Shown: piece by piece, positions 108 through 20,760 of the stretch
How the letters are laid out: every line of letters starts with the position of its first letter
How positions within the stretch are numbered: the stretch's first letter is position 1
IMG/VR virus record: IMGVR_UViG_3300042453_005804
Span: 1 to 32,000 of that record
Length of the DNA: 32,000 bases
Strand: one strand, 5' to 3'
DNA from: a virus
Position numbers and translations under genes: made by a program
The notes under the pieces: generated by a model
Databases searched by the model: none
Told to the model about the DNA's origin: nothing
Seen by the model: only the letters and a program-made list of their open reading frames with translations

Positions 108-142
108 GACAAGTATATATCTTGTCAGGGGTGACTTTGCAC
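108..142 (-). promoter_or_regulatory. GTGCAAAGT-type promoter, leaderless
   Basis: rc reads GTGCAAAGT..ATATATACT..ATG; ATG at +36 from 9-mer start. Confidence 0.6.
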
Positions 143-147
143 CGGGT

Positions 148-234
148 TCAGGCGGCCATCATCCACCAGGCCGCGAAGGCCGTGGTGGCGACGGTGACGA
201 TGGCTCCGAGGATGTCAGCGGCGGCGTTCTTCAT
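148..234 (-). CDS. 28-aa hydrophobic micro-protein (one predicted TM helix)
   Basis: Not in ORF track. ATG at 232-234 is exactly at +37 of promoter 9-mer 262-270. Reads MKNAAADILGAIVTVATTAFAAWWMMAA, stop rc of 148-150. Confidence 0.5.
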   Translation of the reverse strand: MKNAAADILGAIVTVATTAFAAWWMMAA

Positions 235-270
235 GGTCCCAGTATATCCTATTCAGACGTGACTTTGCAC
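235..270 (-). promoter_or_regulatory. GTGCAAAGT-type promoter, leaderless
   Basis: rc: GTGCAAAGT-N15-TATACT-GGGACC-ATG. Confidence 0.65.
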
Positions 271-429
271 CGACACGGGAGGAACCAACTCCTCCGGCAC
301 CACATTCTCCGGAGTCAAGACGTGACCACGGTAAAATGGCTGGAGCAACACGATGGCTCCCTCGACGGTCCGCGCCCGGACACACTCGCCGGTCTCGACG
401 TAGACCCACCACTTCGTCTTGGTCTTCAT
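253..429 (-). CDS. hypothetical protein, 58 aa
   Basis: Track ORF 253..477 trimmed to the ATG at 429, which is at +37 of 9-mer 457-465. The 16 upstream codons are the translated promoter. Confidence 0.6.
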   Translation of the reverse strand: MKTKTKWWVYVETGECVRARTVEGAIVLLQPFYRGHVLTPENVVPEELVPPVSVQSHV

Positions 430-465
430 ACCACCAGTATACCCTTTCCCGGCGGAACTTTGCAC
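430..465 (-). promoter_or_regulatory. GTGCAAAGT-type promoter, leaderless
   Basis: rc: GTGCAAAGT-N15-TATACT-GGTGGT-ATG. Confidence 0.65.
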
Positions 466-491
466 CGACATGGGCACTTTTTCTCAGGTCA

Positions 492-578
492 CCCAGGATG
501 ACCCAGGAGAGGCCTAGGACAATTCGACCTAGGTTACCCCACCCCCAGTTTCAGGAACCTCTCCTGGGTCATCCTGGG
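492..578. repeat. Intergenic hairpin repeat, copy 1 (orientation A)
   Basis: 21-bp perfect inverted arms CCCAGGATGACCCAGGAGAGG (492-512) / CCTCTCCTGGGTCATCCTGGG (558-578). Core GACCTAGGTTACCCCA is identical to copy 2. Lies 13 nt past the stop of gene 592..1335. Confidence 0.85.
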
Positions 579-591
579 GGTGGGACGAGGG

Positions 592-1335
592 TCAGAACTT
601 ATCTGCCGGGACCCACTGGACGTTCCCCTTGGGGTCCTTCACCCCTGCCCGGGCATTCCACTTGCCGCGGTACTTGGAGACGCCGATCCAGAAGACCTTG
701 CCGGTGAACCCATCGACCGTGACCGTGGTGCCCTTGGTGGGGATCCGGGCCAACTGACCCTCAGCCACCGCCTTCTCGGCCTGGATCTTGGCATCTCGCT
801 TTGCTTGGCGGGCATCCTTCTTCGCCTTCTCGGCGGCGACCTGGGCAGCAGCTTCGGCGAGCTTGGCCATCCGTTCCGCCTCCGCACGGGCGATCCGAGC
901 CGCGTGGTAGGCCTCCCAGACCGCGAGCCCATCGAGCATCTCAGGACCACCGTGGAGGAGCTGCATGTCGAAAGGATCGACCGAAGGCACCAGCGAGTAG
1001 CCGTTACGATCCACGAAGAGGTTAGTGCAATCCACCCAGGCAAACTGCTCGTGGACCTCGAGGTCGCGGATCTTGTCGGCGTCCCACTTGAGAGCGTCGA
1101 AGTAGGCGACGGTGCGACCGCCGGCGTAGTGGGCATCGCGGGCTGGAACGCCGCGGGTGCCGAGCCACACGAGGGCCCAGGTGCACTCCGTCGAGCGGTG
1201 GTCCGAGTAATCGAGGGTGTCCGACCAGTTGCGGGTCTCCGTCGTCTTCTCGATCCGCAGGACGCGGTGCTGGAAGTACACCTCCGATGTGGAGGGGCCG
1301 GGACCGTAGGAGTAGCTCTTCTTGATGATCGGCAT
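592..1335 (-). CDS. hypothetical protein, 247 aa (Ala/Lys-rich helical middle, beta-rich C-terminus)
   Basis: Track ORF; ATG at +37 of 9-mer 1363-1371. Normal amino-acid composition, unlike the overlapping Arg/Pro/Ser-rich shadow ORFs. Confidence 0.75.
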   Translation of the reverse strand: MPIIKKSYSYGPGPSTSEVYFQHRVLRIEKTTETRNWSDTLDYSDHRSTECTWALVWLGTRGVPARDAHYAGGRTVAYFDALKWDADKIRDLEVHEQFAWVDCTNLFVDRNGYSLVPSVDPFDMQLLHGGPEMLDGLAVWEAYHAARIARAEAERMAKLAEAAAQVAAEKAKKDARQAKRDAKIQAEKAVAEGQLARIPTKGTTVTVDGFTGKVFWIGVSKYRGKWNARAGVKDPKGNVQWVPADKF

Positions 1336-1371
1336 GGTTCCAATCTACCACGATCACACAGGACTTTGCAC
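1336..1371 (-). promoter_or_regulatory. GTGCAAAGT-type promoter, leaderless
   Basis: rc: GTGCAAAGT-N15-TAGATT-GGAACC-ATG. Confidence 0.65.
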
Positions 1372-1388
1372 CGCCGCCCGCACTTTTT

Positions 1389-1631
1389 TCAGTCGTCGTC
1401 CACCCCGAAGGTTGAGAGGGGCTCTTCCTCCTCATCATCCTCGCCCACCTCATCCTCGTCTTCGTCCTCATCGATCTCGGCGTCTTCCTCCTCGAGGAAC
1501 CCCTCGCCCACGGCCATCTCGGCCACGTCGGCCTCCGACATGAAGGTCAGGCAGGCCCTCACCAGCACCTCGGCATCCAAGGCGCCTTCTTCCATCATCT
1601 CGAGAAGCTTGTTCGTAACTCGTCGCGTCAT
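1389..1631 (-). CDS. highly acidic 80-aa protein (Asp/Glu tail)
   Basis: Track ORF; ATG at +37 of 9-mer 1659-1667. C-terminal half reads EEEDAEIDEDEDEDEVGEDDEEEEP. Confidence 0.7.
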   Translation of the reverse strand: MTRRVTNKLLEMMEEGALDAEVLVRACLTFMSEADVAEMAVGEGFLEEEDAEIDEDEDEDEVGEDDEEEEPLSTFGVDDD

Positions 1632-1667
1632 GTTGTTACCTTATCTTGTTGGGGGTTGACTTTACAC
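1632..1667 (-). promoter_or_regulatory. GTGTAAAGT-variant promoter, leaderless
   Basis: rc: GTGTAAAGT-N15-TAAGGT-AACAAC-ATG. Confidence 0.6.
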
Positions 1668-1670
1668 CAC

Positions 1671-2095: not shown

Positions 2096-2122
2096 TCAGA
2101 TGCCGATCTTGATCGTTTCCAT
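2096..2122 (-). other. leaderless 8-codon mini-ORF (METIKIGI) in the leader of gene 1671..2057
   Basis: ATG at exactly +37 of 9-mer 2150-2158; stop rc of 2096-2098; followed 38 nt later by the SD-led gene. Confidence 0.35.
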
Positions 2123-2158
2123 TGTTTTACTCTATCACCTCTCTGAGGAACTTTACAC
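2123..2158 (-). promoter_or_regulatory. GTGTAAAGT-variant promoter
   Basis: rc: GTGTAAAGT-N15-TAGAGT-AAAACA-ATG; overlaps the stop codon of gene 2153..2884. Confidence 0.6.
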
Positions 2159-2884
2159 TGCATCGATGCGATGAATCGAGACCGAAGGAGGGAGGCTACC
2201 ATCTCCACATCCGAACACCCGGATCGAATAGTGGGTGACTTCCTTGGGGCAACCCCTACGGTCGACTCGACGGACGTGACGGAACCGGTAGGTCCCAGAA
2301 TCCGGGTACTTTCCGGTCACGGAAGCGTAGGTGGAAGTGAGGCGTACGAATCGGCCTGAGCCGTTGACGCGGAGACCCTTGAAGGCCGCCTCACCGAGGT
2401 TGTCGTAGATTTGCTTGCCAACGAGCTGCTCGTGCTGGCGTTGCGTCCTCTCGACCACCTGAGCGGGTGACTCCATGGTCAACGTGATCTTCTGGGGCAA
2501 CGTCGTTGTCAGCATTTCTCCCAGCATGGCAACCATCGAGACCATGCTTTCCCGCTGCTTCAAAGTCTCTAGGTCCATGTCGCCGCCTGAAGTTCCCACG
2601 GCGATACGTAGGTAGTTTTCTAGCACCATGGCACCTTCATCATTGAGCTGTGCCCCCTTCGGGTCTGCGTTGTAGGCGACCACCAACGTGACCGACGGGT
2701 TGGACTCGTGCCAGGCGCTGCGGGCGGGGTCCAGGTTGAAGTCGTACCGAACCCCGGTCGATCCCTCCGTCACCTCACGAGCGAGGACGTCTCGGTTGTA
2801 CTTGTTCATGTGTGCAACCACACCGTGAGAGCCGATGATGGCCTTAGCGGTGCGGAGGGCTTCGATCCGGGGCGTGGCATCCAT
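2153..2884 (-). CDS. hypothetical protein, 243 aa
   Basis: Track ORF; ATG at +37 of 9-mer 2912-2920. Confidence 0.75.
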   Translation of the reverse strand: MDATPRIEALRTAKAIIGSHGVVAHMNKYNRDVLAREVTEGSTGVRYDFNLDPARSAWHESNPSVTLVVAYNADPKGAQLNDEGAMVLENYLRIAVGTSGGDMDLETLKQRESMVSMVAMLGEMLTTTLPQKITLTMESPAQVVERTQRQHEQLVGKQIYDNLGEAAFKGLRVNGSGRFVRLTSTYASVTGKYPDSGTYRFRHVRRVDRRGCPKEVTHYSIRVFGCGDGSLPPSVSIHRIDAV

Positions 2885-2920
2885 GGTTCTACCTTACCTC
2901 ATTCACCGTGCGCTTTGCAC
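2885..2920 (-). promoter_or_regulatory. GTGCAAAGC-variant promoter, leaderless
   Basis: rc: GTGCAAAGC-N15-TAAGGT-AGAACC-ATG. Confidence 0.6.
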
Positions 2921-3151
2921 TCAGGCGACACCTCGGCGTGACAGTTCGATGCCGAGAAGCTTATAGGCCGTGCGCCAGTTGCGGTGGCGGGCTCGGGCCA
3001 AGACCTGAGTGCCCGCGTCGACCTCGACGAGGAAGTCGCCACCGAACCGCCCCTTGATGCGGGTGCTGCGGACCTCGAGGGGTGTGCCTTCCGAGACGCA
3101 GAAGGAAGCCAGCTCGAGAACCTTCGCCTTGGGAGAGGAGTTTCGCTTCAT
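2921..3151 (-). CDS. hypothetical protein, 76 aa
   Basis: Track ORF; ATG at +37 of 9-mer 3179-3187. Confidence 0.65.
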   Translation of the reverse strand: MKRNSSPKAKVLELASFCVSEGTPLEVRSTRIKGRFGGDFLVEVDAGTQVLARARHRNWRTAYKLLGIELSRRGVA

Positions 3152-3187
3152 GGTTCTACCTTACCTTACCTGAGGTTGACTTTGCAC
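3152..3187 (-). promoter_or_regulatory. GTGCAAAGT-type promoter, leaderless
   Basis: rc: GTGCAAAGT-N15-TAAGGT-AGAACC-ATG. Confidence 0.65.
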
Positions 3188-3192: not shown

Positions 3193-3465
3193 TCAGCCGA
3201 CCGCGAGAGAAAGTGCGCAGTAGCGGCCGTCGGGCAGGTTGCCCTCGTAGTTGATGGTCACGGCACCCTCACCGTCGCCGGCGATCTCGACGAACTTGAA
3301 GACCACCACCTTGCCCGTCCGGTGGCTGCGAACCGCGACCTGACCCGGTGCCCAGCCGGACTGCGGGAAGCCGGGGTGATCGCTGATCGACCCCATGCCG
3401 TGTGCGGCGCGGGCGTTGTACCAGTCGAACTTCGAACCGTCGAGGATGATCGGGAAGGTGTTCAT
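3193..3465 (-). CDS. hypothetical protein, 90 aa
   Basis: Track ORF 3193..3501 trimmed. The first 12 codons (MQSSTSKGHTET) are the translated promoter; the real ATG at 3465 is at +37. Confidence 0.65.
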   Translation of the reverse strand: MNTFPIILDGSKFDWYNARAAHGMGSISDHPGFPQSGWAPGQVAVRSHRTGKVVVFKFVEIAGDGEGAVTINYEGNLPDGRYCALSLAVG

Positions 3466-3501
3466 GGTCTCAGTATGCCCTTTCGAGGTCGAACTTTGCA
3501 C
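3466..3501 (-). promoter_or_regulatory. GTGCAAAGT-type promoter, leaderless
   Basis: rc: GTGCAAAGT-N15-CATACT-GAGACC-ATG. Confidence 0.65.
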
Positions 3502-3504: not shown

Positions 3505-3732
3505 TCAGCGGTCGGAATCCGTCAACCGCTCCGGGTTGACCCACAGGAGACTGGGTTCCTCGCCGGGGTGCAGGACCACCTTGACCTGGACGGGATCCCC
3601 GACGACCGGTTGCCGGTAACCTGCATGGGTGATCCGCCGTGGGTCGACCTGGACCACCTCGGCCTCGTAGGCCCCGTGGAGCTGCCCGCGGAGGAGGAGC
3701 TTCTGACCGACCCGGATGTTCCTGTATTCCAT
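3505..3732 (-). CDS. hypothetical protein, 75 aa
   Basis: Track ORF 3505..3768 trimmed by the 12 promoter codons (MQSSTSKGYTEI); ATG 3732 at +37. Confidence 0.65.
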   Translation of the reverse strand: MEYRNIRVGQKLLLRGQLHGAYEAEVVQVDPRRITHAGYRQPVVGDPVQVKVVLHPGEEPSLLWVNPERLTDSDR

Positions 3733-3768
3733 GATCTCAGTATATCCTTTCGAGGTTGAACTTTGCAC
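3733..3768 (-). promoter_or_regulatory. GTGCAAAGT-type promoter, leaderless
   Basis: rc: GTGCAAAGT-N15-TATACT-GAGATC-ATG. Confidence 0.65.
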
Positions 3769-3786: not shown

Positions 3787-3975
3787 TCACCGAGCCCACT
3801 GCTGGGGAATGGCCTTCCGCAGGGCCTCGAGGATCCCACCGTAGGAGTCCAGGTCTTCCCCGTCCAGGTCCGACAAGGCCGCGCGGATCCGCTTGGCTTC
3901 CTCGAGGGTGAGGTGGACGTCGACTCCGAGGTCACCGTTGCGGACGAAGGTTCGTGAGGTGCGGGTGATTTCCAT
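3787..3975 (-). CDS. hypothetical protein, 62 aa
   Basis: Track ORF 3787..4011 trimmed by the 12 promoter codons; ATG 3975 at +37. Confidence 0.6.
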   Translation of the reverse strand: MEITRTSRTFVRNGDLGVDVHLTLEEAKRIRAALSDLDGEDLDSYGGILEALRKAIPQQWAR

Positions 3976-4011
3976 GGTCTCAGTATACACTTTCTTCCGC
4001 AAACTTTGCAC
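3976..4011 (-). promoter_or_regulatory. GTGCAAAGT-type promoter, leaderless
   Basis: rc: GTGCAAAGT-N15-TATACT-GAGACC-ATG. Confidence 0.65.
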
Positions 4012-4743: not shown

Positions 4744-4908
4744 CTCTTTTTCTGCTGCCTCGTCCAATAACGTTGCTAGATGTTTGGCCTCCTTGATTTC
4801 AGCCTTCGCCTCACTGGTCGACATGTTCCAGTACAACTTCGTCTCCACGGCAGTGGCGTACTTCCTCAAGAAGTCGGCCGCGGCCTTCATTTCCTCACGA
4901 GTCATCAT
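4735..4908 (-). CDS. hypothetical protein, 57 aa
   Basis: Track ORF 4735..4992 trimmed to MMTREEM, downstream of variant promoter 4909-4942. Confidence 0.55.
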   Translation of the reverse strand: MMTREEMKAAADFLRKYATAVETKLYWNMSTSEAKAEIKEAKHLATLLDEAAEKECN

Positions 4909-4942
4909 GCTGTTTATATCTTGTTCAGGTGCAGATTTGCAC
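4909..4942 (-). promoter_or_regulatory. GTGCAAATC-variant promoter
   Basis: rc: GTGCAAATC-N15-TATAAA-CAGC-ATG (ATG at +35). Confidence 0.5.
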
Positions 4943-5621: not shown

Positions 5622-5804
5622 CTACTTAATCGGCAGCTTCCTGTCGTGGCAGCCCTTCATGCCGCTAATGACCACAATCATAACGATTGTTTGGTCAGGA
5701 TTACAAGTTACCACGACCTGTATCCCAGGGGATCCATCTGGATTCGAACCAGAATCGATGTCACCATCGCAACCACATTTATGGACCCATTCGTACTGTA
5801 TCAC
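5622..5804 (-). CDS. possible 60-aa Cys-containing protein
   Basis: Frame of track ORF 5622..5936 trimmed to an in-frame GTG that forms a GTGA overlap with the stop of 5801..6025. No other support. Confidence 0.3.
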   Translation of the reverse strand: MIQYEWVHKCGCDGDIDSGSNPDGSPGIQVVVTCNPDQTIVMIVVISGMKGCHDRKLPIK

Positions 5805-6025
5805 GACGTCGTGAAGATTTGCACAGCGGACACACCATTTTCTGGAAACAACCCGTTCGCAACATAGTTTGCAATCGACCCGCAGGCCTCCGCTTCGTCT
5901 GCATAACGAGTCGCTAACATTGGATCGTAGACCCAACCCTCATTAGGGTTCCAGTAGACGAATTCTTGTCCACCTCGAACACCATTTTTGGTGCGAATCA
6001 CCCAGCATGACGTCATCGTTTGCAT
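5801..6025 (-). CDS. hypothetical protein, 74 aa
   Basis: Track ORF 5801..6085 (TTG start) trimmed to ATG 6025, 1 nt after the stop of 6027..6248. Confidence 0.5.
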   Translation of the reverse strand: MQTMTSCWVIRTKNGVRGGQEFVYWNPNEGWVYDPMLATRYADEAEACGSIANYVANGLFPENGVSAVQIFTTS

Positions 6026-6518: not shown

Positions 6519-6727
6519 ACCCCCGCAAGCCTGCAGGCCTCCTTCAACCTGAGAACATCGCGGAGTGTCGGCATCCCTGATTTTGCAGCCGCTAGAGCAG
6601 CTTGATCTAGCCCGACCAGGCTTACCTGACCCTTCTTCAAACGTTCGACAAGAGCTTCGCCGATCGACCTAAGATGCGAAGAAGAGTAGTACGTCAGGTC
6701 GACGTTGTCTGTCGGCAAGATCCGCAT
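6515..6727 (-). CDS. hypothetical protein, 70 aa
   Basis: Track ORF; ATG at +37 of variant 9-mer 6755-6763. First gene of a tightly overlapping low-GC operon running to about 4943. Confidence 0.6.
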   Translation of the reverse strand: MRILPTDNVDLTYYSSSHLRSIGEALVERLKKGQVSLVGLDQAALAAAKSGMPTLRDVLRLKEACRLAGV

Positions 6728-6763
6728 GATTATACCCTATCATTTGTTTCAGCGACTTTACAA
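6728..6763 (-). promoter_or_regulatory. TTGTAAAGT-variant promoter, leaderless
   Basis: rc: TTGTAAAGT-N15-TAGGGT-ATAATC-ATG. Confidence 0.55.
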
Positions 6764-7556: not shown

Positions 7557-7558
7557 GA

Positions 7559-7837
7559 TCAGTTCTTCTTGAATTTCGCCTCCACATGTTCCTGACATGC
7601 CTTGCACCCGCAGACCCGAGAACCCGTGTAGAACGTCTTCCCCCCGAGAGGATAGATCGACCCATGGATCTCTTCGCCGTTCTTCCTCCGCAACCCAGTC
7701 CAACACCCGAACACGTCCTCCTCTGCCAGGATCCAAACTCCTTCGAACATGATCTCAAGTAGAGGCCCAGCTGCGATGTCATCCGTCGGATGTTCTACGA
7801 TGGGATCAATCGGAATCGACTCAAGAACCTCGGTCAT
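7559..7837 (-). CDS. hypothetical protein, 92 aa (C-terminal CGCKAC cluster)
   Basis: Track ORF; ATG at +36 of 9-mer 7864-7872. Confidence 0.65.
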   Translation of the reverse strand: MTEVLESIPIDPIVEHPTDDIAAGPLLEIMFEGVWILAEEDVFGCWTGLRRKNGEEIHGSIYPLGGKTFYTGSRVCGCKACQEHVEAKFKKN

Positions 7838-7872
7838 GGTCTTAATATATCACTTTCCTTGAGACTTTACAC
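7838..7872 (-). promoter_or_regulatory. GTGTAAAGT-variant promoter, leaderless
   Basis: rc: GTGTAAAGT-N14-TATATT-AAGACC-ATG. Confidence 0.6.
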
Positions 7873-8286: not shown

Positions 8287-8421
8287 CTACTTGTACCAGT
8301 CCTCCTTGTGGCGGGCGTCCTTCGGGCGCCGGTTACGACGATCTTTCATACGGGTTGTCGTCGTGGCGTGTCGAAGAGTCATGGCCACGGCGATAGGGTT
8401 TTGCTTCCTCTTGTTCTTCAT
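8287..8421 (-). CDS. 44-aa highly basic micro-protein
   Basis: Not in ORF track. ATG at +37 of 9-mer 8449-8457. Reads MKNKRKQNPIAVAMTLRHATTTTRMKDRRNRRPKDARHKEDWYK, stop rc of 8287-8289. Confidence 0.5.
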   Translation of the reverse strand: MKNKRKQNPIAVAMTLRHATTTTRMKDRRNRRPKDARHKEDWYK

Positions 8422-8457
8422 GGTTCTACTCTACCACGTTCGACTCTGACTTTACAC
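8422..8457 (-). promoter_or_regulatory. GTGTAAAGT-variant promoter, leaderless
   Basis: rc: GTGTAAAGT-N15-TAGAGT-AGAACC-ATG. Confidence 0.6.
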
Positions 8458-8868: not shown

Positions 8869-8914
8869 TTCTTTTTCTTTCAAGGTCAAGAGGTTGTGGT
8901 TAGTGGCCAGCGTT

Positions 8915-8950
8915 GAAATCAGTATATCACGATGGGTCTAAGGTTTGCAC
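8915..8950 (-). promoter_or_regulatory. GTGCAAACC-variant promoter with about 45-nt leader
   Basis: rc: GTGCAAACC-N15-TATACT-GATTTC-AAC. No ATG at +37; the gene starts downstream. Confidence 0.5.
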
Positions 8951-8959: not shown

Positions 8960-9802
8960 TTAAGATTTTGACAAGATTTCCAGTTCGATGAGAGCCTCCT
9001 TTGCCTTCATCGGCAACGACAACGTATTGGGGAAACCATCGGAATCTCGAGTATTGATGCGAATGAGTGGAGCATTGAGCTTGTTTGACAACAAAGAACT
9101 CTTCGCCCGCACACTGGGGATGTGTTTGCCTGCGCCCAACTCGATGACAACGGTTGCGACATGACGATCTACCAAGGTCCGGACCCACTCCGTCATCTTC
9201 TCGTCTTGCTCATCGGCACGAGAGAAATTCCATCCTGGATCACCAAACATCAGGATGTTCGGCCTCAAGAGCTCTCCGCAGCGCGGGCAGGCGGGTAGCG
9301 GGCTCTGGGCCTCAAACGTCTTGGAATCCACATCGATCTTAACACGTTCTGCAGGCAGAATGCCGATGCCACATCCCTTTGTGCACTGGACGTGATGGAT
9401 GGATCCATGGCATTCCACGATACGATCAGGGTCGAAACCAGCCTTCTGGAAGGCACCATCCACGTTAGACGTGAAGACGAAGGCACCATGCTTCATGCCT
9501 CGAGCAAGACGCTTAAGAACGTCGAAGCCTGCGTGAGGTTGGGTCGCTCGGTACAGGTTGAGCCGGTGACCATAGAATCCCCATGCCAACGCCGGGTTAT
9601 CCTCAAACCACCTCGGGTTGGCCATGTCGGAGAAGGTGAGACCAAGGTGCTTGTACGCCGGATAGGCGTTCCAGAAACCTTCATCTCCTCGGAAATCGGG
9701 CAGACCGCTATCCACCCCCATTCCTGCTCCAGCCGTGATGATGAGTGCGTCAGCTACTCGCAATAGCTGGGCTGCCCGTTGAAGCGTCTCTTGCGTGTCC
9801 AT
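8960..9802 (-). CDS. Sir2-family NAD-dependent protein deacylase (sirtuin)
   Basis: GAGMGVDSGLPDFRG, FTSNVDG, ECHGS, zinc Cys pairs CTKGC/CPRC, RPNILMFGD. ATG at +37 of 9-mer 9830-9838. Confidence 0.85.
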   Translation of the reverse strand: MDTQETLQRAAQLLRVADALIITAGAGMGVDSGLPDFRGDEGFWNAYPAYKHLGLTFSDMANPRWFEDNPALAWGFYGHRLNLYRATQPHAGFDVLKRLARGMKHGAFVFTSNVDGAFQKAGFDPDRIVECHGSIHHVQCTKGCGIGILPAERVKIDVDSKTFEAQSPLPACPRCGELLRPNILMFGDPGWNFSRADEQDEKMTEWVRTLVDRHVATVVIELGAGKHIPSVRAKSSLLSNKLNAPLIRINTRDSDGFPNTLSLPMKAKEALIELEILSKS

Positions 9803-9838
9803 GGTTCTACCTTACCTTGTTTGAGGTTAACTTTGCAC
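9803..9838 (-). promoter_or_regulatory. GTGCAAAGT-type promoter, leaderless
   Basis: rc: GTGCAAAGT-N15-TAAGGT-AGAACC-ATG. The 9-mer overlaps the last 3 nt of tRNA-Arg. Confidence 0.65.
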
Positions 9839-11169: not shown

Positions 11170-11205
11170 GGTTCTATCCTACCTTTTCTAGGTTGAACTT
11201 TGCAC
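11170..11205 (-). promoter_or_regulatory. GTGCAAAGT-type promoter, leaderless
   Basis: rc: GTGCAAAGT-N15-TAGGAT-AGAACC-ATG. Confidence 0.65.
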
Positions 11206-11412
11206 AGAGAAGTAGTTGTGCGCGTTCCGCGTGATCCACTCCACGGCCGGCCACATCTTGGAATCGTCGTAGAAGGCATCGAGCTGAACCGCGAGGAGGT
11301 CTCGGTAGAGATGCGGGTGGAGAGTGGACACAACGTTCATGAAAGCTTGCCCTCGGCGCTGGCCTTGACCGTGAGGTTCCAAAGCCAACTGGAGGAACTC
11401 TTCTAGATCCAT
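11188..11412 (-). CDS. hypothetical protein, 74 aa
   Basis: Track ORF; ATG at +37 of 9-mer 11440-11448; 3' end overlaps the next promoter. Confidence 0.6.
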   Translation of the reverse strand: MDLEEFLQLALEPHGQGQRRGQAFMNVVSTLHPHLYRDLLAVQLDAFYDDSKMWPAVEWITRNAHNYFSVQSST

Positions 11413-11448
11413 AGTTCAACCCTATCAGGTTCGAGGCTAACTTTGCAC
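11413..11448 (-). promoter_or_regulatory. GTGCAAAGT-type promoter, leaderless
   Basis: rc: GTGCAAAGT-N15-TAGGGT-TGAACT-ATG. Confidence 0.65.
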
Positions 11449-11697
11449 TCAGGCCGAGAGATAGACGACCCAGGACTTGCCCTTGGCCTCGTAGGCGAGG
11501 ATGCCGTCATCCACCTCGACCGCCTCCTCATTGGCCTGGATGGTCCGGAGGATCTTGGCCACCATCTTCGGGTCGGCCCGGTCGATCTCGATGCCTGCGG
11601 CATGGCCGTAGTACTTGCCCTTGCAGCCGCACATGCAGCCGATCTTGCCGACGTACGCCTTGACCACCTGCGAGGGAGAGATGCTCTGGATGTCCAT
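11449..11697 (-). CDS. hypothetical protein, 82 aa
   Basis: Track ORF 11449..11733 trimmed by the 12 promoter codons (MQSSTRKGYTKA); ATG 11697 at +37. Confidence 0.65.
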   Translation of the reverse strand: MDIQSISPSQVVKAYVGKIGCMCGCKGKYYGHAAGIEIDRADPKMVAKILRTIQANEEAVEVDDGILAYEAKGKSWVVYLSA

Positions 11698-11733
11698 GGC
11701 CTTAGTATACCCTTTCCTCGTTGAACTTTGCAC
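11698..11733 (-). promoter_or_regulatory. GTGCAAAGT-type promoter, leaderless
   Basis: rc: GTGCAAAGT-N15-TATACT-AAGGCC-ATG. Confidence 0.65.
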
Positions 11734-11748: not shown

Positions 11749-12048
11749 TCAGGCGGCCTTGCGCGCCTTCCGGACCGGCTTGGCCTTGGGTTCGATGACC
11801 GCCCGGCGGATTGGGGTGAGGAACCGGAGCCCGACACCGCCGACGTCGACCGGCGGGACGACCTCGAGGATCTGGACGTCTGCCGTCGGGCCCTTGGGGA
11901 AGCGGTGCGCGATCGAACGTGCCTCGTCGATCGACCCCGTTACGGCGAGGATCTGCGCAGGGGAGAAGCGGGGAGCTCCGCTACGGTCGACCTCGAGGAG
12001 GTGGACGATTTGGACGACGAAGGAGCTTGCTGCCTTGTTGTGTTCCAT
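11749..12048 (-). CDS. hypothetical protein, 99 aa, basic C-terminus
   Basis: Track ORF 11749..12285 trimmed to ATG 12048 (MEHNKAAS), at +37 of 9-mer 12076-12084. The longer ORF would run through the promoter and repeat copy 4. Confidence 0.65.
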   Translation of the reverse strand: MEHNKAASSFVVQIVHLLEVDRSGAPRFSPAQILAVTGSIDEARSIAHRFPKGPTADVQILEVVPPVDVGGVGLRFLTPIRRAVIEPKAKPVRKARKAA

Positions 12049-12084
12049 GGGTCCAATATACCAAACTCGGTAGCGACTTTGCAC
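12049..12084 (-). promoter_or_regulatory. GTGCAAAGT-type promoter, leaderless (outermost minus-strand promoter)
   Basis: rc: GTGCAAAGT-N15-TATATT-GGACCC-ATG. Confidence 0.65.
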
Positions 12085-12286: not shown

Positions 12287-12322
12287 GTGCAAAGTACGGC
12301 CGCCGCATGTTATATTGGAACC
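12287..12322 (+). promoter_or_regulatory. GTGCAAAGT-type promoter (first plus-strand promoter)
   Basis: GTGCAAAGT-N15-TATATT-GGAACC-ATG, preceded by a partial duplicate GCAAAGT. Confidence 0.6.
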
Positions 12323-12349
12323 ATGGAAAGGAACGGAGCGGCAAGGTAA
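12323..12349 (+). other. leaderless 8-codon mini-ORF (MERNGAAR)
   Basis: ATG exactly at +37 of 9-mer 12287-12295; TAA at 12347-12349; the next promoter begins 30 nt later. Confidence 0.3.
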
Positions 12350-12378: not shown

Positions 12379-12414
12379 GTGCAAAGTTCACAGAGGAAAG
12401 GGTAATATAAGACC
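12379..12414 (+). promoter_or_regulatory. GTGCAAAGT-type promoter, leaderless
   Basis: GTGCAAAGT-N15-TAATAT-AAGACC-ATG. Confidence 0.65.
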
Positions 12415-12621
12415 ATGAACAACGCCACCAAGACCAAGGGCACCTTCGTTCACCCCCAGCTCCCCAAGATGGGCACCATGACGGGCTACGTCACCACCTC
12501 CCGCGGTGAGCTCGTCTTCATGCCCGACGCGAAGTACCACGACAAGCTCTTCAACCTGTACGACGTCGAAGCTCTCGAGGGGCTCTACGTCAACCAAGGC
12601 ACCTTCACCCCTGCTCAGTGA
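12415..12621 (+). CDS. hypothetical protein, 68 aa
   Basis: Track ORF; ATG at +37; followed by a GC-rich multi-hairpin tract at 12622-12669. Confidence 0.65.
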   Translation: MNNATKTKGTFVHPQLPKMGTMTGYVTTSRGELVFMPDAKYHDKLFNLYDVEALEGLYVNQGTFTPAQ

Positions 12622-12688: not shown

Positions 12689-12724
12689 GTGCAAAGTTCT
12701 CTGCAGAAAAGGTAGGATAAGGAC
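12689..12724 (+). promoter_or_regulatory. GTGCAAAGT-type promoter, leaderless
   Basis: GTGCAAAGT-N15-TAGGAT-AAGGAC-ATG. Confidence 0.65.
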
Positions 12725-12940
12725 ATGGACAAGGTATACATCGTCTTCGCCGGTGAGCACTACGCCTCGCACAACCTCGTCTCCGTCCACGCCACGGAGG
12801 AGGCGGCCCTCGCAGCAGCCAAGAACTACATGGAGACGGACGAGGACATCTCGGCCCACGAGTACAAGCCCGGCCGCGGCCACTCCTGGACGACGAAGTC
12901 CTGTCACTACGTGACGATCGAGACGCACTCGGTCGCCTGA
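12725..12940 (+). CDS. hypothetical protein, 71 aa
   Basis: Track ORF; ATG at +37. Confidence 0.65.
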   Translation: MDKVYIVFAGEHYASHNLVSVHATEEAALAAAKNYMETDEDISAHEYKPGRGHSWTTKSCHYVTIETHSVA

Positions 12941-13032: not shown

Positions 13033-13068
13033 GTGCAAAGTTCCTCGTCGAAAGGATATATTAGGACC
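13033..13068 (+). promoter_or_regulatory. GTGCAAAGT-type promoter, leaderless
   Basis: GTGCAAAGT-N15-TATATT-AGGACC-ATG. Confidence 0.65.
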
Positions 13069-13284
13069 ATGAAGAACGGTACCAAGCTCTCCGCCGGTCA
13101 GATGATCGTCAAGTCCATGGACGCGGCCGGCCGTACGGTCGACGCAAAGCTCTTCGACTCAGGGGTCCGCGGTCTCAAGAAGCTCTTCGGACGGACCGAC
13201 GACCTCTTCAGCGTCGAGATGTACCTCGTCGACGAAGGCCTCGATCAGGACATCGCGTCCGACATCGTCTACAAACACTTCTGA
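13069..13284 (+). CDS. hypothetical protein, 71 aa
   Basis: Track ORF 13033..13284 trimmed by the 12 promoter codons (MQSSSSKGYIRT). Confidence 0.65.
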   Translation: MKNGTKLSAGQMIVKSMDAAGRTVDAKLFDSGVRGLKKLFGRTDDLFSVEMYLVDEGLDQDIASDIVYKHF

Positions 13285-13299: not shown

Positions 13300-13335
13300 G
13301 TGCAAAGCTCAGACGAATCCTGGTATAACTGATCT
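13300..13335 (+). promoter_or_regulatory. GTGCAAAGC-variant promoter with 38-nt leader
   Basis: GTGCAAAGC-N15-TATAAC-TGATCT-ATC. ATC rather than ATG at +37; AAGGAGAA SD precedes ATG 13374. Confidence 0.6.
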
Positions 13336-13373
13336 ATCGGCTGGTTCGGAAGCCAGCCACCAAGGAGAACACC

Positions 13374-14453: not shown

Positions 14454-14489
14454 GTGTAAAGTTCTCGGCCAACAAGGTATAACAGAAAC
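14454..14489 (+). promoter_or_regulatory. GTGTAAAGT-variant promoter with 41-nt leader
   Basis: GTGTAAAGT-N15-TATAAC-AGAAAC-ATC; GGAAAGGA SD before ATG 14531. Confidence 0.6.
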
Positions 14490-14530
14490 ATCAACAGGCA
14501 AACAGCCTAACCCACGGAAAGGATTACATC

Positions 14531-15275: not shown

Positions 15276-15311
15276 GTGCAAAGTCCGCAGACATCCTGGT
15301 AGTATCTAACC
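15276..15311 (+). promoter_or_regulatory. GTGCAAAGT-type promoter with 26-nt leader
   Basis: GTGCAAAGT-N15-TAGTAT-CTAACC-ATA; AAGGAAA before ATG 15338. Confidence 0.6.
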
Positions 15312-15337
15312 ATACCTCCTAACAAGGAAACAACGCA

Positions 15338-17670: not shown

Positions 17671-17706
17671 GTGTAAAGTCAAAGTCCAATAGGATACCAT
17701 TGGACC
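17671..17706 (+). promoter_or_regulatory. GTGTAAAGT-variant promoter, leaderless
   Basis: GTGTAAAGT-N15-TACCAT-TGGACC-ATG. Confidence 0.6.
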
Positions 17707-18195
17707 ATGAAGCCCAGGCCGAAGATCACGTGGACCAATCCGTCTGCGACACCCGCGGTCAAGAAGGCTCCTCGACGCCCCCGCCCGAGCGGCATCACTC
17801 GCGTGACCAATGAGCCATGGTTCTACCTTGAACCTCCGATGAGTGATGCCGCTCGGGTGGCGTGGGACGAGATCAACCAAGGATCGCCCATTACCTTCGC
17901 CACAGCGGCCAAGGTAGTGTCATCTCCTGGCTTCCCGCTTCCTGTCTTGAAGAAATCAGAAGGAACGCCCATTCTGACCATGCGGGGGCCGGTGACGTAT
18001 GCAAACATCCCTGGCGGTGAGCAACTTCCTCAAGGAACGTTCGCAGTGTACCTCGGCATGACCACCGTCAAGATGAAGCGTTCAGCAGGCTCTTCGCATG
18101 TCGAAGGTAATGTTGTTGACCGTGCATTCCGCACAGTCCTCGTCGGACAGAACAAATATCTCCTTGATGATCCGAATATGATTCGGACGGTGTAA
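17707..18195 (+). CDS. hypothetical protein, 162 aa
   Basis: Track ORF; ATG at +37. Confidence 0.7.
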   Translation: MKPRPKITWTNPSATPAVKKAPRRPRPSGITRVTNEPWFYLEPPMSDAARVAWDEINQGSPITFATAAKVVSSPGFPLPVLKKSEGTPILTMRGPVTYANIPGGEQLPQGTFAVYLGMTTVKMKRSAGSSHVEGNVVDRAFRTVLVGQNKYLLDDPNMIRTV

Positions 18196-19457: not shown

Positions 19458-19460
19458 CAT

Positions 19461-19542: not shown

Positions 19543-19547
19543 CTAGA

Positions 19548-19621: not shown

Positions 19622-19626
19622 CAAAT

Positions 19627-19713
19627 GGAAAGATGGCCGAGTGGCCTAAGGCACGTGCTTGCTAAGCACGCGTAGGTGAAAACTTACCGAAGGTTCGAAT
19701 CCTTCTCTTTCCG
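19627..19713 (+). tRNA. tRNA-Ser(GCU), class II
   Basis: Acceptor GGAAAGA/TCTTTCC, anticodon arm CGTGC-TTGCTAA-GCACG, long variable arm, T arm GAAGG-TTCGAAT-CCTTC. Confidence 0.85.
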
Positions 19714-19747
19714 CAAAAACTTATGTGAATGAATATATAGAAAGTAC

Positions 19748-19818
19748 GGGCCCGTAAGCTAATGGGAAACTGGCGCCTTTGCACGGCGCACTTGTGAGTT
19801 CGATTCTCACCGGGTCCA
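19748..19818 (+). tRNA. tRNA-Ala(UGC)
   Basis: Acceptor GGGCCCG/CGGGTCC with the G3-U70 Ala identity pair, anticodon arm GCGCC-TTTGCAC-GGCGC, T arm GTGAG-TTCGATT-CTCAC. Confidence 0.85.
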
Positions 19819-19834
19819 CTAACAAAGATTTTAC

Positions 19835-19923
19835 GCCAAAGTCCCTCAGTGGTCGAGAGGACCAGTTTTGTAAACTGGCGGGATAAAACCCCACCGTGAG
19901 TTCGAATCTCACCTTTGGCTCCA
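19835..19923 (+). tRNA. tRNA with anticodon UGU (Thr codon ACA) but a 17-nt variable region; CCA encoded
   Basis: Acceptor GCCAAAG/CTTTGGC, D arm CCTC/GAGG, anticodon arm CCAGT-TTTGTAA-ACTGG, variable CGGGATAAAACCCCACC, T arm GTGAG-TTCGAAT-CTCAC. Confidence 0.65.
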
Positions 19924-19924
19924 T

Positions 19925-20011
19925 GGAGAAGTGGCCGAGTGGTCGATGGCAACGGTTTAGAAAACCGTCGTGGGTGAAAGCCCACCGGGAGTTCGAATCT
20001 CTCCTTCTCCG
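19925..20011 (+). tRNA. class-II Ser-like tRNA with anticodon AGA (A34)
   Basis: Acceptor GGAGAAG/CTTCTCC, anticodon arm ACGGT-TTAGAAA-ACCGT, variable arm GTGGG-TGAAAG-CCCAC, T arm GGGAG-TTCGAAT-CTCTC, G73. Confidence 0.7.
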
Positions 20012-20020
20012 CAAATCTCG

Positions 20021-20056
20021 GTGCAATGTCCTGACAGGACATGATACCCTGACACC
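20021..20056 (+). promoter_or_regulatory. GTGCAATGT-variant promoter, leaderless, with a palindrome in the spacer
   Basis: GTGCAATGT-N15-TACCCT-GACACC-ATG. The spacer holds ATGTCCTG-A-CAGGACAT (20026-20042). Confidence 0.55.
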
Positions 20057-20257
20057 ATGTTCAAAGTCATCGATCTAGCCTCCCGCCTCGAACGTTGGAC
20101 CACCGCCTACGAACTGGGCGATCTCGTCTTCTCCGTCTCGAATCACGGACGAATTCACGTGAAGGTCGGAGAAGAAAGCCGGATCATGAGCCTCGTCGAC
20201 GCGGTGTCCATGATGGGACGGGTCTCGGAAACGTTCGAGAACCTGTCGGGACTCTAG
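20057..20257 (+). CDS. hypothetical protein, 66 aa
   Basis: Track ORF; ATG at +37. Confidence 0.6.
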   Translation: MFKVIDLASRLERWTTAYELGDLVFSVSNHGRIHVKVGEESRIMSLVDAVSMMGRVSETFENLSGL

Positions 20258-20514
20258 GCTTCTCCGTCGTGCTTCCCGAGGATCATCACGTCCTCCTGGA
20301 TTAACTTGCGAATAATGTCAGCCAGTTCCCCATATCCGGCTTTTTCCAGGGCCGTGGCGGCCTCAAGGAGTCCTACGATGCGACCCTGGTCCAATCCTGC
20401 CTCGGTGGCCTGATAGATCATGGTGTCTACTGATGCCAACATATCCTTCACCTGGAAGAGCATGTCCCACGCCTCCTCCCGTTCCGCACACTTCTTGCAG
20501 GATTTATCGTCCAT
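20254..20514 (-). CDS. hypothetical protein, 86 aa
   Basis: Track ORF 20254..20643 trimmed to ATG 20514 (MDDKSCKKC). Stop overlaps the stop of 20057..20257 (CTAG). Confidence 0.5.
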   Translation of the reverse strand: MDDKSCKKCAEREEAWDMLFQVKDMLASVDTMIYQATEAGLDQGRIVGLLEAATALEKAGYGELADIIRKLIQEDVMILGKHDGEA

Positions 20515-20683
20515 GGCGCTCCGCGGCAGGAGGCTCGGGGGTGAGACCTGGAATGTGATGATGGGTAGGTATACCCCACGCGTAGAAGGTGGTAGCCCAG
20601 TGGAACCCCCAGGCGGCCAGGTACCCCAACAGGAATCCTGCAAGAAACGTCCTCCACGACTCGGATGACCTGAGGCCCTTCAT
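20504..20683 (-). CDS. small membrane protein, 59 aa
   Basis: Track ORF; ATG 20683; hydrophobic FLAGFLLGYLAAWGFHWATTFYAW; overlaps the next gene by 11 nt. Confidence 0.45.
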   Translation of the reverse strand: MKGLRSSESWRTFLAGFLLGYLAAWGFHWATTFYAWGIPTHHHIPGLTPEPPAAERHGR

Positions 20684-20724
20684 CAATATAACTATCTTTC
20701 TCTTGAGATTTTTTTTCGGGACCG

Positions 20725-20760
20725 GTGCAAAGTATACACCACCCGTGATAGGATGTATCT
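20725..20760 (+). promoter_or_regulatory. GTGCAAAGT-type promoter, leaderless
   Basis: GTGCAAAGT-N15-TAGGAT-GTATCT-ATG. Confidence 0.65.

Follow-up and report, generated by a model that had tools for sequence, protein, structure and literature searches.

Conserved, predicted leaderless promoters with a replaced -35 element in a clade of T4-superfamily jumbo phages, and a candidate two-part sigma factor

The window and its source genome

The DNA analysed here, in the following called the window, comprises 32,000 nucleotides (nt) of a virus (positions 1 to 32,000 of the IMG/VR record IMGVR_UViG_3300042453_005804) and carries 33 copies of a promoter-like element, in which the 9-mer GTGCAAAGT is followed in nearly fixed register by a hexamer of the form TAnnnT and, in most copies, by a start codon. 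The elements precede the genes of two divergent series, which switch direction at about 12.1-12.3 kb. The proteins of the window include a SIR2-family protein, a KaiC/RecA-like ATPase, a MoxR-like AAA_5 ATPase and a DUF2201 (zincin/VWA) protein; further matches were obtained for a dCMP deaminase, an Smr domain and an HNH endonuclease, the remaining proteins being mostly small orphans, and the best protein-level matches did not exceed ~30% identity. In addition 13 tRNA genes are present, and Rfam yielded nothing besides tRNAs.

One close relative encodes a gp23-type major capsid protein (Pfam Gp23, 4e-77), and the window hence belongs to a T4-superfamily jumbo phage, whose genome measures at least 282 kb; ~45 kb of its sequence were examined. 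The phage falls into the 'group 2' jumbo phages of the scheme of Iyer et al. 2021. According to that article (PMC7824862), group 2 phages have no RNA polymerase of their own and use phage sigmas plus gp33, and RpoD-like sigmas are recorded among them. A megablast search with 23 kb against the 50,697 deposited phage genomes of INPHARED returned no close relative and only a tRNA-sized match. Relative loci were fetched and are designated by L-numbers (L015, L047, L068 etc.), of which L068 runs past the window end.

The base composition changes at about 23 kb, from ~58-62% GC in positions 1-22900 to ~37-47% GC in positions 23000-32000 and in L068 (1-20288). Since one JGI contig stops at this point, a chimeric assembly join at ~23 kb was suspected and then rejected, as the boundary is crossed by two contigs, one of 282,134 bp from ENA and one of 43.8 kb from JGI. 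Furthermore, a gene family with a common N-terminal peptide occurs on both sides of 23 kb, which also speaks against a join.

The promoter array

Exact copies of GTGCAAAGT occur 20 times in the window, compared to 0.19 expected from dinucleotide-preserving shuffles. With up to one mismatch 36 matches were found against 6.1 expected, the surplus beyond the promoter copies corresponding to the chance level. The preliminary description of this DNA had listed 33 copies of the arrangement GTGCAAAGT (±1-2 bases)-N15-TAnnnT-N6-ATG; all of them were re-derived, each co-oriented with the gene that it precedes. For the exact copies the orientation agrees in 20/20 cases, with those between 134 and 12084 lying on the minus strand and those between 12287 and 20733 on the plus strand.

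The register is nearly invariant. At 25 of the 33 sites the distance from the first base of the 9-mer to the ATG is exactly 36 nt, and at four others (142, 4942, 5824, 7872) it amounts to 34-35 nt. Open reading frames (ORFs) of 28-435 amino acids (aa) are opened by 22 of the 25 ATGs at exactly +37. The hexamer at +25..+30 is an exact TAnnnT in 25/33 copies, one base out of register in two (142, 7872) and an in-register near-miss in the remaining six (CATACT, TATAAA, TATAAC twice, TACCAT and TACCCT). Four copies (8950, 13300, 14454, 15276) carry AAC, ATC, ATC and ATA, respectively, in place of the ATG, followed by a leader of 26-46 nt with an AAGGAG-like Shine-Dalgarno sequence at its end; position 8915, given earlier for the first of these, is the predicted transcription start of the minus-strand copy at 8950. 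As outlined in the following list, the copies fall on both strands around the divergent switch; leaderless expression is a prediction in every line.

104..142, minus: promoter; exact 9-mer, TATACT one base off, ATG at 35 nt; gene MKLTTKQLRS... continues past the window edge
232..270, minus: promoter; GTGCAAAGT-N15-TATACT-N6-ATG; predicted leaderless 28-aa gene 148-234
427..465, minus: promoter; exact 9-mer, TATACT; predicted leaderless 58-aa gene 253-429
1333..1371, minus: promoter; exact 9-mer, TAGATT; predicted leaderless 247-aa gene 592-1335
1629..1667, minus: promoter; GTGTAAAGT, TAAGGT; predicted leaderless 80-aa gene 1389-1631
2120..2158, minus: promoter; GTGTAAAGT, TAGAGT; ATG of an 8-aa ORF; the real gene 1671-2057 is next, with a Shine-Dalgarno sequence
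2882..2920, minus: promoter; GTGCAAAGC, TAAGGT; predicted leaderless 243-aa gene 2153-2884
3149..3187, minus: promoter; exact 9-mer, TAAGGT; predicted leaderless 76-aa gene 2921-3151
3463..3501, minus: promoter; exact 9-mer, CATACT; predicted leaderless 90-aa gene 3193-3465
3730..3768, minus: promoter; exact 9-mer, TATACT; predicted leaderless 75-aa gene 3505-3732
3973..4011, minus: promoter; exact 9-mer, TATACT; predicted leaderless 62-aa gene 3787-3975
4904..4942, minus: variant; GTGCAAATC, TATAAA, ATG at 34 nt; 57-aa gene 4735-4908
5786..5824, minus: variant; GTGCAAATC, TACAGT; ATG at 34 nt, opening a 3-aa ORF; weakest member
6725..6763, minus: variant; TTGTAAAGT, TAGGGT; predicted leaderless 70-aa gene 6515-6727
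7834..7872, minus: promoter; GTGTAAAGT-N14-TATATT, ATG at 35 nt; 92-aa gene 7559-7837
8419..8457, minus: promoter; GTGTAAAGT, TAGAGT; predicted leaderless 44-aa gene 8287-8421
8912..8950, minus: leader copy; GTGCAAACC, TATACT, AAC at the predicted start; leader of ~46 nt, ATG at 8868
9800..9838, minus: promoter; exact 9-mer, TAAGGT; predicted leaderless SIR2-family gene 8960-9802; adjoins tRNA-Arg(CCU) 9835-9909
10526..10564, minus: promoter; exact 9-mer, TAGGAT; predicted leaderless 203-aa gene 9917-10528
11167..11205, minus: promoter; exact 9-mer, TAGGAT; predicted leaderless 92-aa membrane-protein gene 10891-11169
11410..11448, minus: promoter; exact 9-mer, TAGGGT; predicted leaderless 74-aa gene 11188-11412
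11695..11733, minus: promoter; exact 9-mer, TATACT; predicted leaderless 82-aa gene 11449-11697
12046..12084, minus: promoter; exact 9-mer, TATATT; predicted leaderless 99-aa gene 11749-12048; innermost minus-strand copy, at the divergent switch
12287..12325, plus: promoter; exact 9-mer, TATATT; ATG of an 8-aa ORF; first plus-strand copy
12379..12417, plus: promoter; exact 9-mer, TAATAT; predicted leaderless 68-aa gene 12415-12621
12689..12727, plus: promoter; exact 9-mer, TAGGAT; predicted leaderless 71-aa gene 12725-12940
13033..13071, plus: promoter; exact 9-mer, TATATT; predicted leaderless 71-aa gene 13069-13284; palindrome TGCAACTAGTTGCA 9 nt upstream
13300..13338, plus: leader copy; GTGCAAAGC, TATAAC, ATC at the predicted start; 38-nt leader with AAGGAG; KaiC/RecA-like ATPase gene 13374-14138
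14454..14492, plus: leader copy; GTGTAAAGT, TATAAC, ATC at the predicted start; 41-nt leader; gene 14531-15208
15276..15314, plus: leader copy; exact 9-mer, TAGTAT, ATA at the predicted start; 26-nt leader; MoxR-like AAA_5 gene 15338-16456
17671..17709, plus: promoter; GTGTAAAGT, TACCAT; predicted leaderless gene 17707-18195; last promoter ahead of the tRNA cluster 18239-20012
20021..20059, plus: variant; GTGCAATGT, TACCCT; predicted leaderless 66-aa gene 20057-20257
20725..20763, plus: promoter; exact 9-mer, TAGGAT; predicted leaderless DUF2201 (zincin/VWA) gene 20761-22068; last copy of the window

The consequences for gene annotation that had been pointed out for the motif were borne out as well. 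Five entries of the ORF list begin at the GTG of the motif (ends 3501, 3768, 4011 and 11733; start 13033), and the four genes of less than 60 aa that the list had missed are present at 148-234, 253-429, 4735-4908 and 8287-8421. Likewise, no functional-looking copy lies between 23.2 and 32 kb, where the array ends at a real compositional boundary within one genome, and none that is credible was detected in the 10 kb past the window end. Towards the other side the array goes on for 5.5 kb or more past the window start, at about one copy per 250 bp, and few terminators lie between the promoter units.

Three ATGs are weak gene starts, opening only 8 (2158), 8 (12287) and 3 (5824) codons. The two 8-codon ORFs, METIKIGI and MERNGAAR (2120-2158; 12287-12349), stand after full-consensus promoters, and each is followed by the next real gene or the next promoter. 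The ATG at the predicted transcription start is thus retained even where it is useless as a start codon, which suggests that positions +1 to +3 also belong to the promoter signal. Among the leader copies, the leader of the KaiC/RecA-like ATPase gene (13336-13373) opens with a hairpin, GGCTGG-TTCGGAA-GCCAGCC, right at the predicted 5' end, which may serve to stabilise this end or act as a regulatory stem.

Conservation across the phage clade

Scanning IMG/VR for the exact pattern gave 51 loci in about 25 viral contigs, some of them 211-298 kb in length. Among ~330 unselected TGCAAAGT sites in ~25 contigs, the hexamer TAnnnT stands in register in ~95% and an ATG at +37 in ~86%. A position matrix was built from 285 non-redundant copies, all of them outside the window. 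Each position of the 9-mer (-36..-28) holds 1.5-2.0 bits, and conserved positions flank it on both sides: an A-rich tract at -54..-49, C-38 and T/C at -27. Within the spacer A-18 is found in 85% and G-14 in 93% of the copies, followed by G/A at -13, and position -15 has T in 45%, G in 34% and only rarely C (1.4%). Downstream, TAnnnT at -12..-7 is followed by purine-rich positions -6..-4, by A-3, C-2 and C-1 and by A+1 (90%), then TG. From the ATG onward the matrix exhibits a 3-nt periodicity with C-rich third positions; coding therefore starts at that ATG.

The same pattern is visible in single gene families. Orthologues of gene 592-1335 (50-87% protein identity) have mostly kept the 9-mer, the -10 hexamer and the ATG, the exact 9-mer being present in 5/8, and their 15-nt spacer and upstream DNA have diverged. 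In the contig L047 of a sister lineage the same 9-mer and -10 hexamer are followed by a leader of 11-17 nt with AAGGTAGGAA before the ATG, as expected if transcription starts ~7 nt after the hexamer. A further contig of 215.9 kb carries the box GTG(C/T)AAGT(C/T) with the same spacing and tAGATC-ATG, and the core of the box common to the whole family is RTGYAA. The motif is real and highly non-random, and it can be regarded as a conserved promoter of the whole phage clade.

Isolated GTGAAA variants with correct spacing were noticed in low-GC DNA, in L068 (1648-1686) and in the region 27424-27462 of the window, an example being GTGAAAAGT-N15-TATGAT-GGATCC-ATG. This form occurs 10 times across the fetched loci, and the fourth box position therefore tolerates C, T or A. 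Many low-GC genes have a TAnnnT hexamer 6-7 nt before the ATG and no 9-mer. Among ~165 candidate leaderless starts without the 9-mer no second -35-type motif was found, and only the GTGAAAAGT variant emerged.

In search of the host, a collection of bacterial genomes was scanned for the 9-mer. Multiple copies were observed only in small contigs resembling phage DNA that had been binned into unrelated metagenome-assembled genomes (Proteobacteria, Ca. Aquidulcis, Bdellovibrionota), and single-copy matches remained at about the chance level (~17). In the literature the 9-mer was encountered in primers only, and reports on leaderless phage promoters contained nothing on this motif.

Promoter architecture and predicted transcription start

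The downstream half of the element corresponds to a sigma-70-type promoter. The hexamer has A-11 and T-7, and its last base lies 7 nt before the A of the ATG, as is canonical for a transcription start, so that a leaderless reading is natural. Of the extended -10 element G-14 is kept and T-15 only partly, and a discriminator and a pyrimidine-purine start are present as well.

The upstream half is of a different kind. As had been remarked before, the -35 position is unlike TTGACA, since both TGCAAA (17-nt spacer) and GTGCAA (18-nt spacer) match it in 3/6 positions, and in a simple TTGACA/TATAAT scan canonical sigma-70 sites were not enriched in the array (6 vs 7.2 expected). Judged by its base sequence, the 9-mer at -36..-28 is not a standard -35 element, and nine contiguous near-invariant positions exceed the needs of a housekeeping sigma; an extended -10 promoter needs no -35 element. 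The asymmetry of the box argues for a monomeric reader.

The proposals that the element is a promoter and that its genes are expressed without leaders are strongly supported by the comparative evidence, namely the distance between the -10 hexamer and the ATG, the codon periodicity from the ATG, the conservation among orthologues and the leader variant of L047. The sites have the AUG start and in-frame ORF of a leaderless gene, and transcription would start at the A of the ATG, yielding an mRNA without leader. On read-through transcripts coming from promoters further upstream the AGG-rich -10 region (TAGGAT, TAAGGT, aAGG at -17..-13) could act as a Shine-Dalgarno sequence.

Base composition and codon usage

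The motif-led block has a GC content at third codon positions (GC3) of 0.81, compared to 0.41 for the AT-rich rest. Codon use differs accordingly between motif-led and low-GC genes, with 5% vs 60% for AAA, 0% vs 38% for AGA, 6% vs 31% for ACA and 0% vs 32% for ATA. The tRNAs of the phage (Lys-UUU, Arg-UCU, Arg-CCU, Gln-UUG, Gly-UCC, Thr-UGU, Ala-UGC, Leu-CAA and others) decode codons that are favoured by the AT-rich part, and their genes lie inside the motif-led block, downstream of the 17671 promoter. These data suggest that the motif-led block is expressed first with the tRNAs of the host, which would accordingly be GC-rich, and that it afterwards furnishes the tRNAs needed by the AT-rich remaining part of the genome. 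Other lineages have an even composition across this locus, either GC-rich or AT-rich, and the compositional island is therefore specific to the lineage of the window.

Phage sigma factor and partner protein

A comparison of E. coli RpoD with six-frame translations of the fetched loci revealed an RpoD-like protein of ~254 aa in six motif-bearing contigs (E 1e-42 to 1e-49). Pfam assigns Sigma70_r2 (8e-23) and r3 (5e-5) and no r4. According to the alignment with RpoD the protein retains regions 1.2, 2, 3 and 4.1, region 4.1 reading LSPKEAAILRLRFGL; the recognition helix of region 4.2 is replaced by ITQEQVEKISxGEGLT, in which Q, Q and E stand in place of R584, R586 and R588, and at this point the protein terminates. 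Proteobacterial RpoD is a slightly closer match to it than actinobacterial SigA/HrdB. A profile scan of IMG/VR gave 347 relatives, and the best 80 of these (49-100% identity) were used for counts of C-terminus and gene linkage. The same degenerate, truncated C-terminus was observed in 80/80 loci, so that the clade encodes a polypeptide without functional region 4.2, as one half of a split sigma would be.

In all of these loci (80/80) a second protein of ~95-104 aa, in the following called the partner, is encoded 230-500 nt downstream of the sigma gene. Its invariant core is GVNYR(D/E)IA..M.E.G..MNHSSARNYVLRVM(R/K)KF with the helix NHSSARNYVLRVMRKF, and 506 homologues were found, all unannotated, in contigs of up to 369 kb; a tblastn search of the deposited phage genomes in INPHARED found none. 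The partner's N-terminal half is basic and appears to resemble the helix-turn-helix of region 4.2. In hhalign its segments NYRDIADTM and SSARNYVLRVMRKF are set on the two helices of that helix-turn-helix with weak support (P 0.007, probability 5%), whereby the R588/Q589 pair is kept as R-N. The AlphaFold2 model, which is confident (pLDDT 86.7), consists of a hairpin plus four helices. In the consulted sections of Iyer et al. 2021 (PMC7824862) the truncated region 4.2, the partner and the promoter are not described.

In most of the 80 loci the sigma gene overlaps by its stop codon with the start (ATGA or GTGA) of a gene for a small membrane protein, which thereby occupies an anti-sigma-like position. 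The gene order is conserved in L015, L026, L032, L044, L045, L006 and L077-L155: a ~115-aa protein (MGKKNK..., W(E/D)(V/I)E(M/L)CY(V/L)QRE), the truncated sigma, the single-pass membrane protein, the ~100-aa partner, a ~140-aa protein with a helix-extension-helix-like N-terminus (76/80 loci) and an ATP-dependent DNA ligase. The leader of the first gene carries a conserved GGAGGCCGAAAGGC hairpin in many lineages.

The operon is linked to the promoter motif. In the first six sigma loci it lies at the end of a motif array in the same orientation (6/6), and its promoters are either GTGCAAAGT-N15-TAGAGT with a Shine-Dalgarno leader or the variants GTGCAATGT, GTGCAAAGG, ATGCAAAGT and ATGTAATGT, of which GTGCAATGT, the form of the window copy 20021..20059, stands before the sigma operon in close relatives. 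Of the 60 non-redundant sigma loci for which 1.1 kb or more of upstream sequence is available, 24 have a motif of at least 8/9 matches with TAnnnT on the same strand ahead of the operon, compared to 0-9% in the controls (opposite strand, shuffled sequence and downstream DNA). The window's lineage uses a 13-nt-spaced variant, which this count of 24/60 misses. A motif ahead of the sigma operon fits the autoregulation of an alternative sigma and, no less well, a sigma gene that is merely one member of the early class.

Other candidate regulators were also sought. A pattern search of 6123 six-frame ORFs revealed no WhiB-like proteins, phmmer gave no match for T4 gp55 in 1.48 Mb of fetched loci, which cover only parts of the genomes, and the Pfam families of MotA and AsiA are absent from the 61 window proteins. 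The window does encode a 98-aa protein (29443-29739, minus strand) with a Fis-type helix-turn-helix at its C-terminus (Pfam HTH_8, 1.4e-5) and an N-terminus resembling the repeated peptide MK..LR.IIRE. Its gene has TATAAT 7 nt before the ATG and no 9-mer and is probably leaderless, and a homologue (38% identity) is found in L049 beside motif copies. This protein is a possible alternative reader of the 9-mer.

The earlier suggestion of a dedicated sigma or activator, or an unusual host sigma, thereby takes on a more concrete form, the phages' own RpoD-like sigma with its disabled region 4.2 being, together with the partner, a candidate reader of the 9-mer.

Mechanism and alternative explanations

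Starting from the observed motif with its fixed register and conservation, and from the linked sigma and partner genes, we infer that the 33 copies could be the promoters of one temporal class, early or delayed-early, and that the partner could bind DNA. We tentatively favour, with confidence somewhat short of even, that the 9-mer is read by a two-part phage sigma. The G-14, TAnnnT, the purine-rich discriminator and C-1/A+1 would be read by sigma-70-type regions 2 and 3, and RNA polymerase would start at the A of the ATG, producing an mRNA without leader. The 9-mer GTGCAAAGT (core RTGYAA) would take the place of the normal -35 element and would be read by the pair, i.e. by the RpoD-like protein minus the 4.2 helix together with the separate ~100-aa partner. 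The primary sigma of the host could fire the same promoters weakly via the extended -10 element, and since the sigma operon stands under the same promoter, this weak firing would bootstrap it. A split sigma would explain why region 4.1 is kept and 4.2 lost, why an RpoD-like -10 half is joined to a foreign -35 half and why box and partner helix are near-invariant across lineages of 38-60% GC. The split-sigma model requires no further factor.

Several observations weigh against this assignment. The partner helix is unchanged in the lineage with the box GTG(C/T)AAGT(C/T), whose motif differs at positions 7-9, so that no covariation is seen. In the window's lineage the genes of sigma and partner have a GC3 of 0.37-0.57, which is backbone-like compared to 0.81 in the motif-led block, and a later-acting product therefore fits better. 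By analogy, the two proteins resemble T4 gp55/gp33, which are late-promoter factors. The T4 late promoters served by gp55/gp33 have only a -10 element. A sigma gene behind a promoter of the class is equally expected if the class is simply 'early'. Furthermore, a sigma gene of the window's own genome was found neither in the window nor in the 5.5 kb beyond it. For the partner no match was obtained in Pfam (with a single sequence as well as with 49 members), among PDB sequences or, at a significant level, with Foldseek against PDB or BFVD, and its helix-turn-helix is therefore read from a sequence pattern only.

These points lead to the best surviving alternative, which we nevertheless consider unlikely: host polymerase with its primary sigma would be joined by another 9-mer-binding protein (MotA-like, early or virion-delivered), and sigma and partner would be the late gp55/gp33 equivalent, acting on -10-only promoters and encoded by one more 9-mer-driven gene set. 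A sigma without region 4.2 and a ~100-aa helical partner mirror gp55 plus gp33, their GC3 is that of the backbone, and membership in the T4 superfamily, together with the use of sigmas plus gp33 that PMC7824862 gives for group 2 jumbo phages, points in the same direction. So do the low-GC genes with TAnnnT 6-7 nt before the ATG and no 9-mer, and perhaps the TATAAA-type cores upstream of some low-GC genes; a binding protein could be supplied by the 98-aa Fis-type helix-turn-helix protein (29443-29739). However, this explanation needs one additional hypothetical factor compared to the two-part sigma, the window proteins contain no member of the MotA/AsiA families, and the ~165 leaderless candidates devoid of the 9-mer have no second conserved upstream motif. 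The partner is also unlike gp33 in its basic, helix-turn-helix-like N-terminal half. To our knowledge, no DNA binding by gp33 has been described.

It is improbable that the host holoenzyme alone reads the promoter, with the 9-mer as a phage-optimised or host-specific -35 element comparable to the T4 'uber' early promoters. T4 early promoters do have extra conserved positions and need no phage factor, although their excellent match to the host -35 (PMC2988021) differs from the 3/6 match to TTGACA found here. GTGCAA at an 18-nt spacer shares TG and the final A with TTGACA, and the remaining modules are near-consensus for a primary sigma; nine positions at 1.5-2 bits nonetheless go beyond the need of a housekeeping sigma and are superfluous at an extended -10 element. 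Immediate-early expression by the host would fit the host-like, GC-rich codon usage of the motif-led genes, which needs no phage tRNAs. The motif is, however, constant across lineages of 38% to 60% GC, suggesting different hosts, and apart from the small contigs like binned phage DNA no bacterial genome carries it in multiple copies.

Very improbable is a 9-mer that serves mainly as operator, through which a phage repressor would shut off the early class together while the extended -10 alone initiates: the site is asymmetric, orientation-locked and highly repeated like the stoperators of cluster A mycobacteriophages, G-14 and TAnnnT could suffice for initiation, and the palindrome TGCAACTAGTTGCA (5 copies vs 0.8 expected, and present in relatives) could be a dimeric site for a TGCAA-recognising protein, but the strict 15-nt register to the -10 hexamer in ~95% is a requirement of a promoter and not of an operator, a complete initiation signal is indicated by the A-rich tract at -54..-49 and by the conserved positions of the spacer, and no repressor candidate was identified.

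Returning to the two-part phage sigma, the overall picture would be that of a clade of T4-superfamily jumbo phages whose early programme runs via a split sigma, with an orphan partner reading GTGCAAAGT at hundreds of leaderless promoters and, in the lineage of the window, with a codon-optimised, GC-rich early block that also delivers tRNAs to the AT-rich rest. As a whole this picture is possible and rather doubtful. If the pair does read the 9-mer, it would form a compact orthogonal promoter/sigma system, useful for synthetic biology and for studies of sigma modularity, and a sigma that lacks its recognition helix and has an obligate partner would raise the question of how -35 recognition moves from region 4.2 to another polypeptide. 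The promoter model itself is ready for use, as it comprises more than 300 natural variants from a widespread clade of uncultivated freshwater jumbo phages. It fixes gene starts, including those of proteins of less than 60 aa that gene callers missed or started at the motif GTG, and according to it a T4-like phage would possess an entire regulon of leaderless mRNAs, for which we know of no earlier description. The putative early block would be a clean example of temporal codon partitioning, carrying tRNA genes for the very codons that it avoids and of which the remaining genome makes heavy use.

Further sequence features

The palindrome TGCAACTAGTTGCA (14 bp, perfect) occurs five times in the window with up to 3 mismatches, compared to 0.8 expected:

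13011-13024 and 22463-22476: exact copies
4730-4743 and 14173-14186: one mismatch
18760-18773: two mismatches

It is also present in the relatives L010, L023, L027, L037 and L066. Its half-site resembles the core of the promoter 9-mer, and three copies lie 5-27 nt upstream of genes without a 9-mer promoter (22482, 4724, 14213). The palindrome could be an operator or a small RNA hairpin.

In the low-GC part a second conserved upstream element was noted at 23507-23540 and 23943-23976, which in sense orientation (minus strand) reads GACAAATC.AGA.AT.CACGATACCTATAA(A/G)C and precedes the Shine-Dalgarno leader and ATG of two paralogous genes. Its CTATAA(A/G) core resembles a T4-type late promoter, and comparable TATAAA cores are found ahead of the L015 and L026 sigma operons and at ~L068:6790. 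The late-promoter form tied to gp55/gp33 is TATAAATA-like.

At least seven genes share the N-terminus MK(L/I)(T/R)xxQLRxIIxEE, with starts at 107(-), 23473(-), 23917(-), 24021(+), 24717(+), 25411(+) and 26827(-); weaker versions start at 29739(-) and 31691(-). Three members of ~230-290 aa also carry a C-terminal P(N/S)DDC...EEFL.(Y/A)(A/S)Y. The capsid-targeting sequences of T4 internal proteins end in an I-x-E pattern and are cut by the prohead protease. In analogy, and as a speculation, the peptide found here, which likewise ends in I-x-E, could mark virion-packaged proteins.

About 1.9-4.5 kb past the window end L068 encodes a GroEL-type chaperonin (7185-8807; Cpn60_TCP1, 2e-68), with TACTAT 6 nt ahead of the ATG, and an IF1-like translation initiation factor (9567-9818; eIF-1a/IF-1 domain, 1e-19). 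A phage IF1 is of note in a genome that seems to depend on leaderless initiation.

Comparison with known systems

Mycobacteriophage stoperators and start-associated sequences are repressor sites or translation-linked motifs without a fixed -10 register. The window shares with them a short, asymmetric, intergenic motif of ~30 repeats that is oriented with transcription, and it differs in a register to the -10 hexamer that is fixed to the base. The T4 early 'uber' promoters likewise form a very dense array of strong and mutually similar promoters at small early genes, with UP-like A-tracts, an extended -10 element and extra conserved positions (PMC2988021). Their excellent match to the host -35 (PMC2988021) is not found here, and T4 early mRNAs have leaders.

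A TAnnnT hexamer 6-7 nt upstream of an ATG that coincides with the transcription start was described for M. tuberculosis (PMC3898074) and Deinococcus deserti (PMC4007540) and in a survey (PMC3160421). The leaderless units of Actinobacteria and Deinococcus-Thermus share this hexamer with the phage promoters, whereas their -35 is weak or canonical instead of a rigid 9-mer, and in the phage almost all genes of a block exceeding 28 kb have a copy to themselves. Thermus phage phiYS40 reportedly has leaderless middle and late transcripts.

Two-polypeptide sigmas are represented by T4 gp55 plus gp33 (for gp33, PMC4621102 and PMC7824862) and by SigO-RsoA of B. subtilis (PMC7826278, PMC8103513), in which one protein contains region 2 and the other a region-4 substitute at the beta-flap. 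Common to these systems and to the arrangement proposed here would be sigma functions split over two proteins of one genome. In the jumbo phages, by contrast, the large part is a near-complete RpoD-like protein with regions 1.2, 2, 3 and 4.1, the split falls within region 4, a small membrane-protein gene that is translationally coupled to the sigma gene lies between the two, and homology of the partner to gp33 or RsoA was not detected.

In function, the nearest analogue is the T4 middle promoter, of which about 60 per genome carry a MotA box, with sigma region 4 taken off the reading of the -35 (PMC2988021, PMC6755090). Both systems belong to the T4 superfamily and combine a sigma-70 -10 element, often extended, with an asymmetric phage box of 9-10 bp at the -35 position; both comprise tens of promoters per genome and serve similar genes (small takeover proteins, nucleotide metabolism, tRNAs). 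However, the box is GTGCAAAGT here and (a/t)(a/t)(a/t)TGCTTtA in T4 (PMC2988021), and is not a MotA box; its distance to the -10 element is 15 bp instead of 12±1 bp; and no MotA/AsiA homologue occurs among the 61 window proteins. Region 4.2 is disabled in a phage-encoded sigma and not by remodelling of the host sigma, and the transcripts are predicted to be leaderless. Compared with these systems, the feature is a class-specific phage promoter with a replaced -35 element, which has two unusual properties, namely the apparently systematic leaderless expression in a T4-like jumbo phage and the association with a sigma that lacks its -35 helix and is accompanied by an orphan partner.

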